From assembly GCA_022750455.1 (NCBI GenBank), contig JAKIVR010000003.1, positions 4,457 through 68,456 on the forward strand: 64,000 bases of DNA. The letters are read 5' to 3'. Below, piece after piece: positions 51,940 to 58,437 of the stretch; the stretch's first letter is position 1; every line of letters starts with the position of its first letter. This DNA comes from Thermoplasmata archaeon (lineage in GTDB: Archaea; Thermoplasmatota; Thermoplasmata; Lutacidiplasmatales; UBA184). The notes under the pieces are model-generated. The model saw only the letters and a program-made list of their open reading frames with translations. It did not search any database and had not been told where the DNA came from. A program made the translations under genes and the position numbers.

Positions 51940-52626
51940 ATGGAGCGCAGGGAGAAGGCCAGGGCACCGCACGTGGGCAAGCCGTACACCCTCCGGACCC
52001 CGGTTCCGCTGCGGTCCGCCAGCGACATGACGATCACCCGGTCGGGCATCCCGACCGATCCTACCCTCGCCCTCGCCGGACCGGTCGACCACGACTCCCT
52101 GGCGAAGGCGATCCGCCGCTCGGTCGGGCACGACGGTATGCGCCCCGAGGACGCGCGGACCATCGCGGCCCACGTGCTCAATTTCTTCGGCTTCCAAGAG
52201 AGGATCATCGACAATGTCCTCGAACCGGATGACCGGGACACGTTCTACATGCTCGAAGATACGGGCATCCTGGAGACCGAGCGGGACGAGACGACCCTCT
52301 ACGACGGCCGGGAGTGGCGCATCCACTACTGGATGTTCCGAAAGGACCGGATCTTCGACCTCGCCCACCAGGAGTCGCAGGCGATGGCCGAGGCCGGCGA
52401 GGTCGACGTCGTCTACTCCTCAAAGACCGGGCGCTCCGGCGCGTTCCTCGGTTCGGCCCCCGAAGGGCAGTTCGGCACGGGCCATCACGCTCTCTACCAC
52501 GACCTCGGCGACGAGATCTGGCTCGAGCGCAAGCTCAGCCCCCAAGAGAGCGACGTCCCCGAGGCGCCGGTGAGCCCTCTCCGCCCTCCGCCTCCCCGGC
52601 GGAGCGCGAAGTCGGTCAAGAAGTAG
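51940..52626 (+). CDS. hypothetical protein
   Basis: ATG 22-29 nt downstream of TATA TAATAGTA, i.e. leaderless. Protein-like composition. No motif recognised. Confidence 0.5.
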   Translation: MERREKARAPHVGKPYTLRTPVPLRSASDMTITRSGIPTDPTLALAGPVDHDSLAKAIRRSVGHDGMRPEDARTIAAHVLNFFGFQERIIDNVLEPDDRDTFYMLEDTGILETERDETTLYDGREWRIHYWMFRKDRIFDLAHQESQAMAEAGEVDVVYSSKTGRSGAFLGSAPEGQFGTGHHALYHDLGDEIWLERKLSPQESDVPEAPVSPLRPPPPRRSAKSVKK

Positions 52627-52678
52627 GCCCACCCCGCCGACCCGGCAGGCCTTTCCGAGCGGACGTCTCCCCTCCGAC

Positions 52679-53302
52679 GTGCGTCGCTTCCTGCTGTTGG
52701 CCCACCGAGTGCCGGTCGACGGTGCGTTCACCCTGAACGACCTCGCCGGGGGCGGGGGCCGGATGGACGAGATCGCTCGTTGTGTCTCGACAGCGTTCAC
52801 CATATCGAACGACCTCCGTCGCGACACGGAGCTCACGGTCCTCTTCGGATCCGAGCCCCCGCCCCGGAGCCGCCGGATCGACATCTACGGAGCGCGCCTG
52901 CGGCTGCTGAACCCGGACGAGCGGTCGACGGCCGCGCTGCTCAAGAACGCGCTCATCCGCTCGCACAACGTCCCCGGGATCGTGGAATCCTCTCCGGGGA
53001 TGGTCGTGGGACCTTCCCAACCGCTCGAGGACCTGGCCCGGTTCGCCTCGCAGCCCGGCTGCTGGTGGCTCGTGGAAGGAGGGGCTCCTCTGGCCTCCCT
53101 CGCTCCGACATCGGACGTCGCCGCGGTCCTGAGCGATCCGACCGACCCGACCCCGCCGGAACGCGAGATCCTGGAGAGATCTGGCGCAGTCTCCATCCGT
53201 GTCGGGCCGAGATCGCTCCGCAGTTCCCAAGTCCTCGACGTTGTCCAGAACGTCCTCGACGGCGCCTCCGAGGCAGTTCCCGTCGACCGGACGCCCCGCT
53301 AG
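52679..53302 (+). CDS. trmY: tRNA (pseudouridine54-N1)-methyltransferase TrmY (SPOUT, DUF358)
   Basis: MRRFLLLAH...FTLNDLAGGGGRMDEIARCVSTAF...RRD...VLFGSEPPP...PDER matches the TrmY pattern F.L.DL.G..GR.D...RCVS.AF...RRD. 207 aa. Confidence 0.7.
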   Translation: MRRFLLLAHRVPVDGAFTLNDLAGGGGRMDEIARCVSTAFTISNDLRRDTELTVLFGSEPPPRSRRIDIYGARLRLLNPDERSTAALLKNALIRSHNVPGIVESSPGMVVGPSQPLEDLARFASQPGCWWLVEGGAPLASLAPTSDVAAVLSDPTDPTPPEREILERSGAVSIRVGPRSLRSSQVLDVVQNVLDGASEAVPVDRTPR

Positions 53303-54324
53303 AGCAGGAGGGGCGTGTTGTCCTCGGCCTTCCCTTGGAGGGCGTCCCGGACGGAGCTCGGTCGGAGTCCCCCGACGACGGCCGTGAGCCGAACGACCTC
53401 CCGACGCTCCGGATGGGTTCGATTGCCGACGAGCATCCGACGGGGCTCCCCGAGCCGGGACCGCATCGATCGCCAGATGCGGTCGACGGTCTCGAGGGTG
53501 AGGTTCGAGCCCCCGTCCACGTGCACGAGCGCCGACGGCCCGGCCGAGAGCTCGAAGTCGAGGAGGGTCTCCGTCAGCGCCTGGTCGACGAGCCGCTCCG
53601 GTTCCGAGATGTGCTCCTCGGCGCGGAGCAAGGTCGAGACCCCGGATTGCTCCAGATGGCCCCTCAGGCTCGCCAGGTCGACGTTCATCTGCGACGGGTG
53701 CTCGACCATGTCGACGAGCCCTTCGACGAGGCTGTGCATGTACGCGTTCCGGACGTGCAGCACCCGAGGGACGGGGAGGGAGGCGAACCGCTGCAGCTTC
53801 TGGTTGGAGACCGCGAGGAGGAGCCCCCCCATCTCTTCGAGCTCCTGGAGCGCCGCGAGCGCGTTCTCCCGACGGTTCGGGTTCGTCTCCATCTCGATGT
53901 GGAACGGGAGGATCGCGATCGGCACGGCGAGAACGTCGTGATCCCTCAGAGCCGAGGTGAGGTACGGGAGGAGGGCGGAGCCCGTGCCCCCTCCCAGGGC
54001 GGCGATCAGAAAGACGATGTCATGAGGGACCAGGAGCGGCACCACGTCGTCGTGGGCTTCCGCCATGCCCGCATGGACGGCGTCCCGATCCCCTCCGCTG
54101 CCGTGGCCCCGAAGCGTCCGCTGGCCGAGAAGGATCCGTTCCGCCACGTCGAGGCCTCTGAGGTGCCGGGCGTCCGTATTGATCGCGACCGCCTTGACCG
54201 ACGGGGAGAGTCCGAATCCCATCAGGTCGTGGACGGCGTCGCAGCCGGCGCCCCCGAGCCCTACGACGGCGAAGCCGCCCGAATGACCGTAAGGCGCCCA
54301 CGACGGGAGCGGTTCCCCTTTCAT
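53299..54324 (-). CDS. tubulin/FtsZ-family GTPase, CetZ-like
   Basis: VVGLGGAGCDAV (G-box 1). AINTDARHLRGLD. LLGQRTLRGHGSGGD (CetZ-type GHGxGxD rather than FtsZ GLGAG). ALGGGTGSA (tubulin signature GGGTGS). Start ATG 54324 (MKGEPLPS...). Confidence 0.7.
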   Translation of the reverse strand: MKGEPLPSWAPYGHSGGFAVVGLGGAGCDAVHDLMGFGLSPSVKAVAINTDARHLRGLDVAERILLGQRTLRGHGSGGDRDAVHAGMAEAHDDVVPLLVPHDIVFLIAALGGGTGSALLPYLTSALRDHDVLAVPIAILPFHIEMETNPNRRENALAALQELEEMGGLLLAVSNQKLQRFASLPVPRVLHVRNAYMHSLVEGLVDMVEHPSQMNVDLASLRGHLEQSGVSTLLRAEEHISEPERLVDQALTETLLDFELSAGPSALVHVDGGSNLTLETVDRIWRSMRSRLGEPRRMLVGNRTHPERREVVRLTAVVGGLRPSSVRDALQGKAEDNTPLLL

Positions 54325-54340
54325 GGCGCCGTCTCCCGGG

Positions 54341-54703
54341 TTACGGGGAGGAGGTCCCTTCGTCGGCGGTGAGCGACTCGCCATCTCGGCGGCCCCGGGG
54401 CGCGCTGACGGCTTCGGTCTTGACACGGATGTACTCGCGGACAGCGGAGCGAACGGCGTCGTCGATCGAGACCGAGGCGCCTTCCCGCACGAACTCCTCG
54501 AGCTGGCGATTGTCCTGCCGGGAGAGGTCGACGACGACCTTCTTGATGTTCGGGGGGGGGAGGTTCATCTCGATGAACTTCTCGAGTCCTTCCCGGATCG
54601 TGTCCGAGATCGTCGGGGTGCCTTTCGACTGCTGGATCGCCTTCAGTTTCTCGAGGAGATCCTGCGGGATCCGAACCGTGACCCGCTCGGAAGTATCTGC
54701 CAT
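54341..54703 (-). CDS. ribbon-helix-helix (CopG/Arc/ParR-like) DNA-binding protein with two tandem RHH motifs
   Basis: First RHH: ERVTVRIPQDLLEKLKAI...ISDTIREGLEKFI. Second RHH: KKVVVDLSRQDNRQLEEFV...SIDDAVRSAVREYI. 17 nt upstream of the CetZ-like gene on the same strand. Confidence 0.75.
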   Translation of the reverse strand: MADTSERVTVRIPQDLLEKLKAIQQSKGTPTISDTIREGLEKFIEMNLPPPNIKKVVVDLSRQDNRQLEEFVREGASVSIDDAVRSAVREYIRVKTEAVSAPRGRRDGESLTADEGTSSP

Positions 54704-54750
54704 GTCTGTCCGACGTTCCTCGGCGCTTTGTCAGACAAATGGCATATCTG

Positions 54751-54760
54751 TATATTAAAG
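54751..54760 (-). promoter_or_regulatory. TATA box (plus TATATTAAAG, minus CTTTAATATA) for the RHH-CetZ-like operon
   Basis: ~48 nt upstream of the RHH ATG (54703). Flanked by the inverted 8-mers ATATCTGT (54744-54751) and ACAGATAT (54802-54809). Confidence 0.45.
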
Positions 54761-55023
54761 CTCGTTTCGATTCCCGGATTTGCGCAGAAGCCCATTCCGC
54801 ACAGATATCACATTGGGCGCCAGAATCTCGTCATCCGCCGCGTAGGCCAGCGCCGTAGAGGCCGCCGACTATCTTGACATAGTGCCGCGTCTAGAAGAAG
54901 AGTACGACATTTCTCCCTCGGAGATGGGTCCGGAACCCCCGTTCGACACGGCACTACGCCGTGGACCACGACCTTGAGAAATCTTATCCCCCTTGGTGAG
55001 GAGTCGGGGTCGGAGGCGCAAAG

Positions 55024-58000
55024 ATGAGCGTCACATACGGTCTAGTTCCGTCCCGAGCGAACCCACGGCCAGTCCGCAACTCCGTCCGGGGGAAATCTGC
55101 CGCCATACTGATCGGCCTCGTGCTCGTGGGCACTCTGTTCGCGGGAGCCCTATCGAATGCGACTGCCGGCCGATCGATTGAGGTCCGAGTCTCCCCGGGA
55201 GGGGTGCCGTCAGCTCCCCCCAGTTCGCAAGCCAACGCCCGGCCTGTCCCCGCGTCGGGCGGCGTCGGTTCGGTGATCGCGACGCTCGACCTGGCCACGA
55301 ACCACCTCTTGCCGGGGAACCAGGCGCCCCCGGTCCAAGCCGGCCCCGAGATGGTGCTGTACGACGCCTCGAACGGCAACCTGTACGTGCGTGGGACCGA
55401 CGGCTCGACCATCAGTGTCGTGAACGCCTCGACCGACAAGGTACTGACCAGTCTCACCGTCGGGTTCGGCGGGAGCGCTTACGTTCCCAACGTCGCAACG
55501 ATCGCCGACGACCTGACCAACGGCAACCTCTACGAAGTGAATCCGATGCTCGAAACGGTGGGGGTCATCCAAACCTCCACGAACACGCTAACCACCACGA
55601 TCAATGTCCACGCCGGCGTCGAGGCGATCGTATTCGACCCGTCGAACGGGAACCTCTACACGACCAACTGGTACAGCGACAACGTCTCAGTGATCTCGGG
55701 AACCACCAACAAGGTCGTCGCCAGCATCCCCGTGGGAGGGGAGCCGGGCGCGATCTTGTACGACCCGAACGACACGGAAGTGTTCGTGTCGAACTTCCAC
55801 ACAGGCAACGTCTCCGTGATCAATACCACCACCGAGAGCGTCGTGGCGAATCCGAGGACCGGGGTCACGGGATCGGAACCGGTCGCCCTGACGTTGGACA
55901 CCGACGATGACCTGGTCAACGTCGTCGACTCGCTCACCGACAACGTCTCCGTCATCAACGGGAGCACGAATGCCGCGATGACCTCCGTCGCCGTGGGGTC
56001 GATTCCCACCTCTGCCACGTACGTGCCCTCCACGGACACGCTCCTGGTGGCGGACGGCGCCTCGGACAATGTCACGGTCATCCAGGAGCCCCAGGACAAG
56101 ACCATCGCGAGCATCGGGATCGGGCACGGAGCGCAGGGGGCCGCGTACGACCCGTCGAGCGGGTACGTCTACTTCGCAACGTACGGCGCCAACAATGTCA
56201 GCATCGTCAACCCGGCCACTAACGCCTGGGAGGCGGGCGTGGCCACGAGCAACTTCCCGGAGGACCTCGCCGTGGACACGAACAATGGCAACGTCTACGT
56301 CGCCAACCTGGGGACCGACGAGGTAGATTCGAACCTCACCGTCATCTCGGGATCGACCTCACTGCCGATCGCCTCCGTCCTCTTGGAGGCGTACCCGACC
56401 AGCCTGACCGCGGCCCCCAACGGCGACCTCTACGTGTCCGACTATGGCGGAGATCGCGCCGACATCATCTCGGAGTCGACGAACCTTGAGACCGGGATCG
56501 CCCCGGCGGCATCCCCGCAGCCGGGCGATTCGGCGTTCGATCCCGCCACGGACGACCTGTACCTGGTGAGCGGGCCGACGGGCGAGGTCAACGTGGACAA
56601 CGCAACGGGAGCTGTGGTGGCGACCCTCGGGCTCGGTTTCGATTCCCAGGGCGCCGTCTATGATCCGTCGAACGAACTGGTCTACGTTTCCAATTACTAC
56701 AGCGGGAACATCACGCTGATCTACGGATCCAACGAGACCGTCGACACGGTGATCGAAGTCGAACCGTTCGACAGCCTTGGCGCCGAGATCTTCGATCCCG
56801 TGGACTCCGCGGTGTACGTCGCGGACTACAACGAGCACAACGTGACCGTGGTCCACGGGTCGGCCACGACCGGCTCGATCCAGGTCGGAACCTACCCGAC
56901 GTCGTTTGCCTACGACCCGGTGAACGACACGATCTTTGTCGCCAACTACGGGTCGAACAACATCAGCGTCATCAACGCCTCGACCAACCAGGTGGTGGGG
57001 GCGATCTCGGGGTACTACCCCGAATACCTCGCGTACGACTCGGGCACGAACTCACTGTACGTGTCGACGGGGGAGAACGGACTGGTCGACGCGTTCAACG
57101 CGACGACGTACGCCCCCCTAGGGCCCGGGCTGGACATCTCGTCCTCGGTCCGATCCGGCGGCATCGCCTACAACGCCAGCTCGGGCGACCTGTACGTCTC
57201 GAACGAGTACGAAAGCTCCATCGCGATCATCTCGGACGTGAACGTGACCGATTACCCGGTCACTTTCTTCGAGAGCGGCCTCCCCGCGGGGACCTCCTGG
57301 AGTGTCACGTTGGCGGGCTATACCAATGAGTCGGTCGTCCCAGCGATCGAACTCGGCGGGGTCGGAGTCGGATTCGCCGAGCCAAACGGGACGTACCCGT
57401 TCACCGTGGGAGACGTTCCGGGCTACACCTCGAACCCCATCGGGGGGAATATGCATGTCGCGGGCGCTCCGGTCAACACGACGATCGTATTCTCCTCTCC
57501 TTCATCGGCTCCGAGCTATCCGGTCTGGTTCAATGAGACGGGACTCCCTCTCTCGACCTTCTGGGAGGTGACATTGGATTCGTCGGAGATGTCCACGGAC
57601 ACCCCCTCGATCCCGTTCTCCGAAGAGAACGGAAGCTACTCGTTCACCATCGGAGCGGTCACCGGGTATACTTCGAACCGTACCTCGGGTCCCCTGGACG
57701 TCTCCGGCGCACCCGTCACCGTGGACGTTGGCTTCACGTCCGTCGCCGCGTCGTACTCCGTCACGTTCCGAGAGACCGGGTTGCCCTCGTCCACCTCGTG
57801 GAGCGTCACATTGAGCGGTCAACTGGAGAGTTCGACGACGACATCGATCCCTTTCACCGAGGGGAACGGATCGCTCCCGTTCACGGTCGGCGCGGTCACC
57901 GGTTACTCCGCCACTCCCGGCGCGGGGTCCGTGCTCGTCCACGGCGCGGCGGCGACCGAGAACATCACTTTCGCCCTGACGCAGGTACCTCCCTTGACCG

Positions 58001-58437
58001 TCGGTCTGTCAGGAACTCCCGCCTCATTCGGGATCGGCGGCTCGACGACGTTGACCACGACGGCGACCGGGGGGACCGCTCCGTACGGCTACTCGTACTC
58101 GGGGCTCCCGGCCGGGTGTGCCTCGACCGCCTCCAGTTTTGTGTGTACCCCGACCTCGACAGGAGAATTCAACGTGACCGTGACCGTCACGGACGCGTCC
58201 TCGCGGACCGCTCACGCAAGCACGACCGTGACGGTCGAATCCCTCGGCTCGACGGTCCCCACGACCGTCGCCTCGAGCTCCACGAACTACGGCCTCTGGA
58301 TCGCCATCGCCGTTCTCGTCGCCATCGGAGCGATGCTGTTCTTCTTCATCGTCTACCGCCGCCACCGCCGGAAGGAGGAGGAGGCCGCTTCGGCCGCGCG
58401 CGCCGCGTCGCTCACTCCCCCCCCACCGCCCCCCTAG
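55024..58437 (+). CDS. surface protein with YVTN-type beta-propeller repeats, four GLPxxTSWxVTL repeat modules, Ig/PKD-like domain and C-terminal TM
   Basis: N-terminal helix AAILIGLVLVGTLFAGAL. Repeated GNLYVxxxxSDNVSVI-like ~40-aa units (YVTN family). Four modules with the signatures VTFFESGLPAGTSWSVTLAG, VWFNETGLPLSTFWEVTLDS and VTFRETGLPSSTSWSVTLSG. C-terminal helix GLWIAIAVLVAIGAMLFFFIV plus tail RRHRRKEEE...PPPPPP. SD-like GGAGG 6 nt upstream. Confidence 0.8.
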   Translation: MSVTYGLVPSRANPRPVRNSVRGKSAAILIGLVLVGTLFAGALSNATAGRSIEVRVSPGGVPSAPPSSQANARPVPASGGVGSVIATLDLATNHLLPGNQAPPVQAGPEMVLYDASNGNLYVRGTDGSTISVVNASTDKVLTSLTVGFGGSAYVPNVATIADDLTNGNLYEVNPMLETVGVIQTSTNTLTTTINVHAGVEAIVFDPSNGNLYTTNWYSDNVSVISGTTNKVVASIPVGGEPGAILYDPNDTEVFVSNFHTGNVSVINTTTESVVANPRTGVTGSEPVALTLDTDDDLVNVVDSLTDNVSVINGSTNAAMTSVAVGSIPTSATYVPSTDTLLVADGASDNVTVIQEPQDKTIASIGIGHGAQGAAYDPSSGYVYFATYGANNVSIVNPATNAWEAGVATSNFPEDLAVDTNNGNVYVANLGTDEVDSNLTVISGSTSLPIASVLLEAYPTSLTAAPNGDLYVSDYGGDRADIISESTNLETGIAPAASPQPGDSAFDPATDDLYLVSGPTGEVNVDNATGAVVATLGLGFDSQGAVYDPSNELVYVSNYYSGNITLIYGSNETVDTVIEVEPFDSLGAEIFDPVDSAVYVADYNEHNVTVVHGSATTGSIQVGTYPTSFAYDPVNDTIFVANYGSNNISVINASTNQVVGAISGYYPEYLAYDSGTNSLYVSTGENGLVDAFNATTYAPLGPGLDISSSVRSGGIAYNASSGDLYVSNEYESSIAIISDVNVTDYPVTFFESGLPAGTSWSVTLAGYTNESVVPAIELGGVGVGFAEPNGTYPFTVGDVPGYTSNPIGGNMHVAGAPVNTTIVFSSPSSAPSYPVWFNETGLPLSTFWEVTLDSSEMSTDTPSIPFSEENGSYSFTIGAVTGYTSNRTSGPLDVSGAPVTVDVGFTSVAASYSVTFRETGLPSSTSWSVTLSGQLESSTTTSIPFTEGNGSLPFTVGAVTGYSATPGAGSVLVHGAAATENITFALTQVPPLTVGLSGTPASFGIGGSTTLTTTATGGTAPYGYSYSGLPAGCASTASSFVCTPTSTGEFNVTVTVTDASSRTAHASTTVTVESLGSTVPTTVASSSTNYGLWIAIAVLVAIGAMLFFFIVYRRHRRKEEEAASAARAASLTPPPPPP

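Follow-up and report, generated by a model that had tools for sequence, protein, structure and literature searches.

A tandem ribbon-helix-helix gene and a divergent ftsZ2 behind a conserved twin palindrome: a probable Thermoplasmatota version of the archaeal cdrS-ftsZ2 operon

The order Lutacidiplasmatales comprises archaea of acid soils with a G+C content (GC) of ~69%, and the subject of this work is a pair of genes, one for a tandem ribbon-helix-helix (RHH) protein and one for a tubulin-family GTPase, together with the promoter region in front of them. The DNA analysed, hereafter the window, is a stretch of 64,000 nucleotides (nt) of contig JAKIVR010000003.1 (assembly GCA_022750455.1) from a Thermoplasmata archaeon of this order. 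On its minus strand, an open reading frame (ORF) for a CdrS-like RHH protein of 120 amino acids (aa) occupies 54341-54703, from the ATG at 54703 to the stop codon TAA at 54341-54343, and is followed, after a 16-nt spacer (54325-54340) with a Shine-Dalgarno-like GGGAGA (54332-54337), by an ORF for a divergent FtsZ2-type GTPase of 341 aa (53299-54324, from the ATG at 54324 to the stop at 53299). Both stand behind a divergent intergenic region of 320 nt (54704-55023), whose GC of 56.6% is low beside the ~68% of its flanks. The first-pass annotation of this DNA had drawn attention to the RHH gene upstream of a tubulin-family gene and to the low-GC leader, and both were confirmed; the close spacing of the genes that it reported also stands, the gap being 16 nt and not 17 nt. 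Elsewhere this gap is 17-27 nt in four relatives and 89 nt in locus L093. Since the 16-nt spacer is too short to hold a promoter, the two genes appear to form one transcription unit, and they are very probably co-transcribed.

The RHH protein, characterized through its ORF, Pfam, profile comparison and an AlphaFold2 (AF2) model, had been described as two consecutive RHH motifs in one chain, and this description holds. Pfam recognizes RHH_1 at residues 7-44 only, and BLASTP of the N-terminal half against the C-terminal half gives no match; it is profile comparison alone that reveals the duplication, hhalign of the two halves (65 family members) aligning 46 columns in register with 98.6% probability and an E-value of 6.9e-16. 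Unit 1 covers residues ~3-48 (54560-54697) and unit 2 residues ~52-98 (54410-54550), both on the minus strand, with the linker NLPPPNI between them and a variable basic/acidic tail containing a conserved R-x-R-R-D/E behind them (residues 99-120, 54344-54409). Each half finds RHH proteins in profile searches of the PDB, unit 1 matching NikR and ParD-type domains and unit 2 ParD- and CopG-type domains. A phmmer search of 1.84 billion representative proteins returned 88 clusters, nearly all of 95-135 aa and most aligning over residues 4-96, so that the two-unit architecture defines the family, which is strongly conserved across residues 1-95; its members in Methanomassiliicoccales match Pfam RHH_1 and RHH_8 in two stretches. 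With a diverse alignment, AF2 gave a model with a predicted local distance difference test (pLDDT) score of 90 and helices at residues 14-27, 32-47, 62-73 and 80-100 (a shallow alignment gave a pLDDT of 55 and was uninformative), and the best Foldseek matches of this model are NikR RHH domains, superimposed on a single unit at a root-mean-square deviation of ~1 Å. Judged from its sequence, the protein is a true internal tandem duplication. In the strand of unit 1, residues R7, T9 and R11 are conserved, R11 being invariant in 65 family representatives. The tail of the Lutacidiplasmatales proteins, with its R-x-R-R-D/E motif and a Pro-rich end, is missing from the ~100-aa homologues of Methanomassiliicoccales. 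The best NCBIfam match of both halves is the CdrS model NF058555, to which the whole protein scores 28.1 bits (best stretch, residues 6-41) and the C-terminal unit alone 15.9 bits. The Methanomassiliicoccales homologues score 48-69 bits in two stretches, also below the cut-off of 100 bits, and are comparable in this to a haloarchaeal RHH protein encoded next to ftsZ2 (58 bits). The latter is encoded on one of two haloarchaeal megaplasmids that carry additional ftsZ2 copies, in Salinibaculum sp. KK48 (L088:2470-4164) and on pHsi204 of Haloarcula sinaiiensis (L087:2911-4101): in front of one of these copies stands a CdrS-like RHH gene, with an annotated length of 111 aa and a start that is probably at an internal Met, and the other copy has no RHH gene.

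The second gene encodes a protein identical to the deposited 341-aa protein P0121, which bears the name 'hypothetical protein'; a longer, GTG-initiated ORF overlapping the RHH gene was rejected, homologues being 330-345 aa long and the deposited protein 341 aa. Its assignment draws on Pfam, phmmer against the PDB, a neighbour-joining (NJ) tree and motifs. Both Pfam domains exceed their cut-offs, Tubulin (PF00091) at 1.9e-25 and 90.7 bits and FtsZ_C (PF12327) at 1.5e-9 and 38.5 bits, and the only NCBIfam match is the FtsZ model TIGR00065, at 163.4 bits and under its cut-off of 295.2. Among PDB chains the best matches are full-length ones to FtsZ, led by M. jannaschii FtsZ1 at 127 bits. The CetZ identity favoured by the first-pass annotation was rejected, the CetZ chains 4b45, 3zid and 4b46 reaching only 31-40 bits in partial matches to the GTPase domain; TubZ was rejected as well, with no TubZ among the PDB matches at E<=1e-5 and Pfam Tubulin_2 at 24.7 bits, under its cut-off of 27. 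The NJ tree (310 columns, 200 bootstraps, few references) left out CetZ, which the PDB scores had excluded. Its haloarchaeal FtsZ references were plasmid-borne copies found by tblastn and classed by published H. volcanii peptides, the N-terminal FGDPR and C-terminal NGLDVIR for FtsZ2 and EDIDYVE for FtsZ1. In this tree the GTPase and its relatives fall, with 84% bootstrap support, with the FtsZ2 of Haloarcula and Salinibaculum and the RHH-linked FtsZ of Methanomassiliicoccales, whereas the FtsZ1 of M. jannaschii, Natronorubrum and a Methanomassiliicoccales copy, as well as bacterial FtsZ, stay outside this clade. Signatures shared with FtsZ2 are PS, not PG, before the T7 loop, G[VI]STLL and GG[SP]NLTL. 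By these comparisons, the GTPase is a member of the FtsZ family and of its FtsZ2 clade, neither CetZ nor TubZ.

This FtsZ2 departs from the common pattern at several motifs. It has GLGGAG, GHGSGGD in the T4 loop and GGGTGSA, a 3-residue insertion (ETNP) and no long C-terminal tail. The signatures GGGTGS and GHGSGGD had been correctly read, but the T4 loop is not of a CetZ type: it is a lineage variant of FtsZ2 (family pattern G[RH]GSGGD), most relatives having GRGSGGDR. Of 120 homologues, 119 have GGGTGSA instead of GGGTGTG. In the T7 loop, N214-V-D216-L-A-S219, a Ser (codon 53668-53670) replaces the second Asp; S219 aligns with D212 of E. coli, whose T7 loop has N207, D209 and D212. The motif could be located in 114 of the 120 homologues (not in the other 6), and the second Asp is absent from all 114; NVDLAS occurs in 102 of the 120 (P0121-P0240), and the last residue of the remaining variants is S, N or G. 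The FtsZ2 of Methanomassiliicoccales retains an intact T7 loop, NLDFAD or NLDYAD. The missing Asp and GGGTGSA together suggest an altered GTPase-activating surface. The position is probably that of the residue whose D-to-A change inactivates FtsZ1 and FtsZ2 of H. volcanii.

The leader holds a TATA-like element, CTTTAATATA, on the minus strand at 54751-54760, which agrees with the TATA box proposed earlier and is the predicted promoter of the RHH-ftsZ2 pair, its position being conserved relative to two palindromes downstream of it. The distal one, box 1 (TTGTCTGACAA, 54728-54738, minus strand), has the core GTCTGAC at 54730-54736, and transcription is predicted to begin on it or right beside it; the proximal one, box 2 (ACGTCGGACAG, 54706-54716, minus strand), has its core GTCGGAC at 54708-54714, which begins 22 nt after that of box 1 and is 4 nt away from the ATG. 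These twin GTCNGAC boxes (54708-54736) are the sole strongly conserved non-coding element of the locus and had been overlooked. Relatives' loci were taken from the best 80 of the 419 species-level genomes that encode a relative, all 80 of them Thermoplasmata, including Candidatus Lutacidiplasma and Lutacidiplasmatales; this sample is filled by Lutacidiplasmatales, and wider taxa (loci L085, L086, L093, L094 and others) were reached through protein matches. Each of the 81 upstream regions, those of 80 relatives and that of the window, has the GTCNGAC pair no more than 60 nt from the ATG; the starts of the two boxes are 22 nt apart in 76 regions and 21 nt apart in the other 5. The six specified core positions of both boxes are invariant in 73/73 unique upstream sequences, while the spacer varies freely. 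In L085, L086 and L093, which are of the Methanomassiliicoccales type and thus of a different order, the same twin boxes occur at the same 22-nt spacing. The expected number of exact twins per 64-kb window is 0.0075; ~1 Mb of related loci contained 97 twin boxes, every one of them next to the RHH gene, and no further copy was found elsewhere in the window or in that ~1 Mb. Single GTCNGAC boxes are at background frequency (30 observed, 22 expected). There are exactly two boxes in 73 of the 81 regions and three in 8; a third box upstream of the TATA element was seen in L085 (4890-4896) and in eight Lutacidiplasmatales loci (~112-152 nt before the ATG).

The boxes keep their distance to the TATA element and not to the start codon. 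Of the 80 unique upstream regions, counting that of the window, 46 have a distance of 30 nt from the start of the TATA 8-mer to the start of box 1; in L085, L086 and L093 it is ~30-32 nt, and as the TATA element begins ~30 nt upstream of box 1, the predicted transcription start falls on that box. Between box 2 and the ATG there are 4-5 nt in Lutacidiplasmatales, against 16-25 nt in the Methanomassiliicoccales-type order. Palindromes at a fixed helical phase, locked to TATA and not to the start codon, and lying beside an RHH gene, point to an RHH operator. The inverted 8-mers to which attention had been drawn earlier, ATATCTGT/ACAGATAT (54744/54801) and TAGTGCCG/CGGCACTA (54880/54949), do exist, but as functional repeats they find no support: two pairs were observed against 0.9 expected in dinucleotide shuffles (P=0.23), and they are not conserved. 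The near-repeats proposed alongside them are likewise at chance level and not conserved, and upstream of the TATA element there is no alignment among relatives. An element like CATATGCCAA between TATA and box 1 (window 54740-54750) is conserved in many relatives (L001-L084); ATATGCCA, which is part of it (54740-54747, minus strand), overlaps the right arm ACAGATAT named earlier. It may belong to the core promoter or initiator, or serve as an additional binding site.

In relatives, an RHH gene followed by a gene with FtsZ motifs is found in 80 of 82 related loci, so a conserved RHH neighbour, for which the first-pass annotation had proposed to look, is present, and the conserved order is RHH, FtsZ2 and, on the other strand, TrmY and DUF6015. 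Upstream of the RHH gene, relatives carry different genes. The same double-RHH gene also occurs in loci of the Methanomassiliicoccales type, where the FtsZ2 encoded behind it is of a more canonical kind. The RHH-ftsZ2 pair was found on contigs that are 0.9-1.2 Mb long and carry ribosomal, RNA polymerase and tRNA genes close to it, and also on one complete chromosome of 2.18 Mb; tRNA-modification and ribosomal genes are its neighbours in relatives, and the locus is single-copy in the regions seen. The proposal of a TubZRC- or ParR-like partition architecture, possibly on a plasmid or an integrated element, did not survive this comparison: the contigs are chromosomal and of Mb scale with housekeeping neighbours, there are two boxes as opposed to an iteron array, and synteny on these contigs and on the complete chromosome rules out a plasmid partition module.

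Taken together, the locus is likely to be the Thermoplasmatota version of the archaeal cdrS-ftsZ2 cell-division operon, with a tandem regulator, a predicted autoregulatory operator and a divergent FtsZ2. The suggestion made earlier of a dedicated transcriptional regulator comes close to this, with FtsZ2 and not CetZ as the target. The first gene would encode a CdrS-related RHH regulator in which a tandem duplication has put two RHH units into one chain, and the second a fast-evolving FtsZ2 orthologue, both served by a single promoter with its TATA element at 54751-54760 and a predicted start near 54730. The putative operator would consist of the two 7-base-pair (bp) palindromes, 22 bp start-to-start or about two helical turns apart, the first lying on the transcription start. 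We infer that the tandem-RHH protein itself binds there as a multimer, with one symmetric RHH module per palindrome, and that its binding would block the recruitment of RNA polymerase and thereby exert negative feedback on the levels of both the RHH protein and FtsZ2. Each palindrome needs a symmetric reading head, which favours pairing of unit 1 with unit 1 between chains; conjecturally, these paired units would read the DNA through R7/T9/R11 and unit 2, with K55/V57/D59, may serve oligomerization. By analogy with CdrS, other division genes elsewhere in the genome would probably also be regulated.

Several observations weigh against this interpretation. The protein reaches only 28 of the 100 bits set as the CdrS equivalog cut-off and, with 120 aa and two units, is twice as long as the 55-aa CdrS, and for these reasons it is called CdrS-like and not a CdrS equivalog. 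DSSP finds no paired strands in the AF2 monomer model, and neither the PDB nor viral models offer a strong full-length structural match to its domain arrangement. Unit 2 has K55/V57/D59 where unit 1 has R7/T9/R11, so that either unit may be the one that reads DNA. In the window, the TATA-to-box 1 distance is 24 nt, 6 nt shorter than in most relatives. The branch of the GTPase is very long (22-34% identity to all reference FtsZ outside its own lineage), and with an NJ tree of few references its FtsZ2 placement could be a long-branch artefact. Autoregulation would be without precedent in the CdrS family, as the promoter of Haloferax cdrS was not reported among the 18 sites found for CdrS by chromatin immunoprecipitation sequencing (ChIP-seq), and in Halobacterium it is CdrL, another protein, that binds the cdrS-ftsZ2 promoter. 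Finally, boxes 1 and 2 are complementary to each other and can fold as an RNA hairpin.

This complementarity makes an action at the RNA level the main rival, though an unlikely one. Here the mRNA would begin with a stem of ~10 bp formed by the two boxes, closed by a G-rich, Shine-Dalgarno-like loop and followed after 4-5 nt by the AUG, and this hairpin would control translation initiation or mRNA stability. Its predicted free energy is -12.1 kcal/mol (z = -1.9). Among the 73 unique sequences, 59 have complementary or wobble-pairing central bases and 68 can form the flanking pair (box 1 position -1 with box 2 position +7), as T-A, C-G or T-G; an inner A-T pair is replaced by G-C in L085 and L093. 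The z-score is nevertheless weak, 10 of 200 shuffles folding equally well, and the Rfam scan of the leader returned no match. More telling is that the six specified bases of each core are invariant in both arms across two orders, with no covariation there, and such invariance of both cores is unusual for a purely structural stem. Each arm is, moreover, palindromic by itself, the spacing is held at 22 nt despite unrelated spacer sequences, and it is the TATA distance that is fixed while the AUG distance varies (4-5 nt in one order, 16-25 nt in the other). As transcription is predicted to begin at or inside box 1, the mRNA may not even include the covarying -1 base.

An action of the RHH protein away from its own promoter comes next and is improbable. 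The protein would then be a CdrS-like global activator, and an unlinked factor would bind the boxes and time ftsZ2 expression, as CdrL does in Halobacterium; the haloarchaeal cdrS-ftsZ2 promoter is indeed bound by CdrL, and binding by CdrS has not been reported there. CdrL is restricted to Halobacteria, however, and short promoter palindromes beside an RHH gene are the classic layout of RHH autoregulation, of which AvtR is an example. Where the RHH-ftsZ2 pair is present the boxes are too, and they are missing where FtsZ2 has decayed and the RHH gene is kept, a pattern that fits either reading. This case is L094 (5001-6103), a metagenome contig of Methanomethylophilaceae, where the double-RHH gene is followed only by a 160-aa FtsZ2-like remnant corresponding to about FtsZ2 residues 124-265 (25% identity, E 3.6e-4) and lacking the GTP-binding N-terminal part. 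No twin GTCNGAC boxes were found upstream of the double-RHH gene of L094, which looks like a case of FtsZ2 decay with the regulator retained.

It is very improbable that the pair has been repurposed in Lutacidiplasmatales, so that T7-Asp-less FtsZ2 forms filaments of slow turnover that are tethered to DNA by the box-bound tandem-RHH protein through its basic tail; if true, the repurposed pair would be a chromosomal, FtsZ-derived and DNA-anchored cytomotive module with a logic like that of ParMRC or TubZRC. An RHH adaptor beside a polymerizing NTPase does resemble the logic of ParR and ParM, and the lineage has both a fast-evolving FtsZ2 without the second T7 Asp and a lineage-specific conserved R-x-R-R-D/E tail on its RHH protein, but segregation or anchoring in the style of TubZRC or ParMRC, with the RHH protein on the boxes as a mini-centromere coupled, perhaps via the basic tail, to hydrolysis-impaired FtsZ2-like filaments, has the slimmest chance of all, the locus being chromosomal, single-copy in the regions seen and surrounded by housekeeping genes, with only two boxes and no iteron array, a GTPase that is FtsZ2 by tree and synteny and not TubZ, the same operon and boxes in Methanomassiliicoccales, where FtsZ2 is canonical, and TubR not being known as an RHH protein.

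Around the pair, the plus-strand TrmY gene (52679-53302; tRNA pseudouridine-54 N1-methyltransferase family) and ftsZ2 converge and overlap by 4 nt, and TrmY forms a block with the DUF6015 gene upstream of it (51940-53302); the block is syntenic in L003, while L001 has TrmY and no DUF6015 match. Methanomassiliicoccales have a SpoU-type methylase where Lutacidiplasmatales have TrmY. On the other side, the intergenic region is shared with a plus-strand gene for an NHL/beta-propeller surface protein of 1137 aa (55024-58437). In the Methanomassiliicoccales loci L085 (469-3321) and L086 (599-2926), two neighbouring FtsZ1-type genes, with 54-56% identity to M. jannaschii FtsZ1, stand beside Spt5/NusG on the other strand, ~2 kb from the RHH-ftsZ2 pair; several of them are broken by apparent frameshifts in these assemblies. 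The search of protein representatives also brought up two ORFs, P0280 (294 aa) and P0313 (290 aa), that fuse the double RHH in frame with an FtsZ from which the first ~25 residues, with the T1 loop, are missing. Their fusion junctions differ, and they may be natural deletions or assembly artefacts.

The arrangement had been thought undescribed, which it is not: the cdrS-ftsZ2 operon of Halobacteria has been published (Darnell 2020, PMC7439475; Liao 2021, PMC8406309) and an RHH_1 gene is reported to be the usual neighbour of archaeal ftsZ2 (PMC9871819). The RHH-ftsZ2 pairing as such is thus known, and so are tandem RHH proteins. As far as we could find, three aspects are undescribed: the occurrence across Thermoplasmatota of an FtsZ2-linked regulator with tandem RHH units, the conserved twin palindrome at the RHH-ftsZ2 promoter, and the T7-altered, fast-evolving FtsZ2 of Lutacidiplasmatales. 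On the reading preferred here, the CdrS-FtsZ2 cell-division module would be extended from haloarchaea to Thermoplasmatota with three lineage-specific changes, namely a duplicated regulator, a predicted operator and an altered FtsZ2. The predicted operator, GTCNGAC-N15-GTCNGAC, is precise, testable and conserved across two orders, and suggests self-feedback by the regulator in place of the haloarchaeal input from CdrL. An entire order of soil archaea would, in addition, have an FtsZ2 naturally without the second T7 Asp, the equivalent of E. coli D212. These points should be useful to the field of archaeal cell division, and no current view is overturned by them.

Among known systems, TubZRC and CetZ loci resemble the present one in that a tubulin-superfamily GTPase adjoins the gene of a DNA-binding protein, but the GTPase here is neither TubZ nor CetZ, and the locus is chromosomal and has no iteron centromere. 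Short palindromes containing GAC/GTC resemble the met box of MetJ. The likeness to NikR is closer in that the best structural and sequence matches of unit 1 are NikR RHH domains and that NikR operators also have twin sites about two helical turns apart; the window protein differs from NikR and MetJ in having no metal-binding or ACT domain, its second domain being another RHH, and in its operator sequence. Tandem-RHH single-chain regulators include TraY of the F plasmid. AvtR (virus AFV6, PDB 4HV0), whose units pair within one chain and which represses its own gene (PMC5569661), and SIFV gp29 are others, with which the window protein shares two RHH motifs in a polypeptide of ~100 aa; 4HV0 was not among the PDB profile or Foldseek matches, there is no detectable sequence relationship to AvtR, and the window protein, unlike AvtR, SIFV gp29 and TraY, is cellular and neither viral nor plasmid-borne.

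With archaeal FtsZ2 of the type of H. volcanii HVO_0581, the GTPase shares the Tubulin and FtsZ_C domains, the RHH neighbour, the FtsZ2 clade and the FtsZ2 motifs. It differs in its 27-34% identity to other FtsZ2 and very long branch, in the T7 loop NVDLAS, the GGGTGSA G-box, the G[RH]GSGGD T4 loop and the ETNP insertion, and in lacking a long C-terminal linker and any tail motif like G[LI]DVIR. The comparison with CdrS shows a similar mixture. CdrS has 55-60 aa and one RHH (that of Hbt. salinarum is a single-domain protein of 55 aa), as opposed to 120 aa and two units here; no CdrL gene is present, the gap to ftsZ2 is 16 nt as against 3 nt, and a conserved twin palindrome stands at the operon's own promoter, where Haloferax CdrS has not been reported. 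Common to both systems are a small RHH gene directly upstream of ftsZ2 and co-oriented with it, and a unit-1 strand, ERVTVRIP in the window protein, that is close to the DRITIRFP of the haloarchaeal FtsZ2-linked RHH protein.

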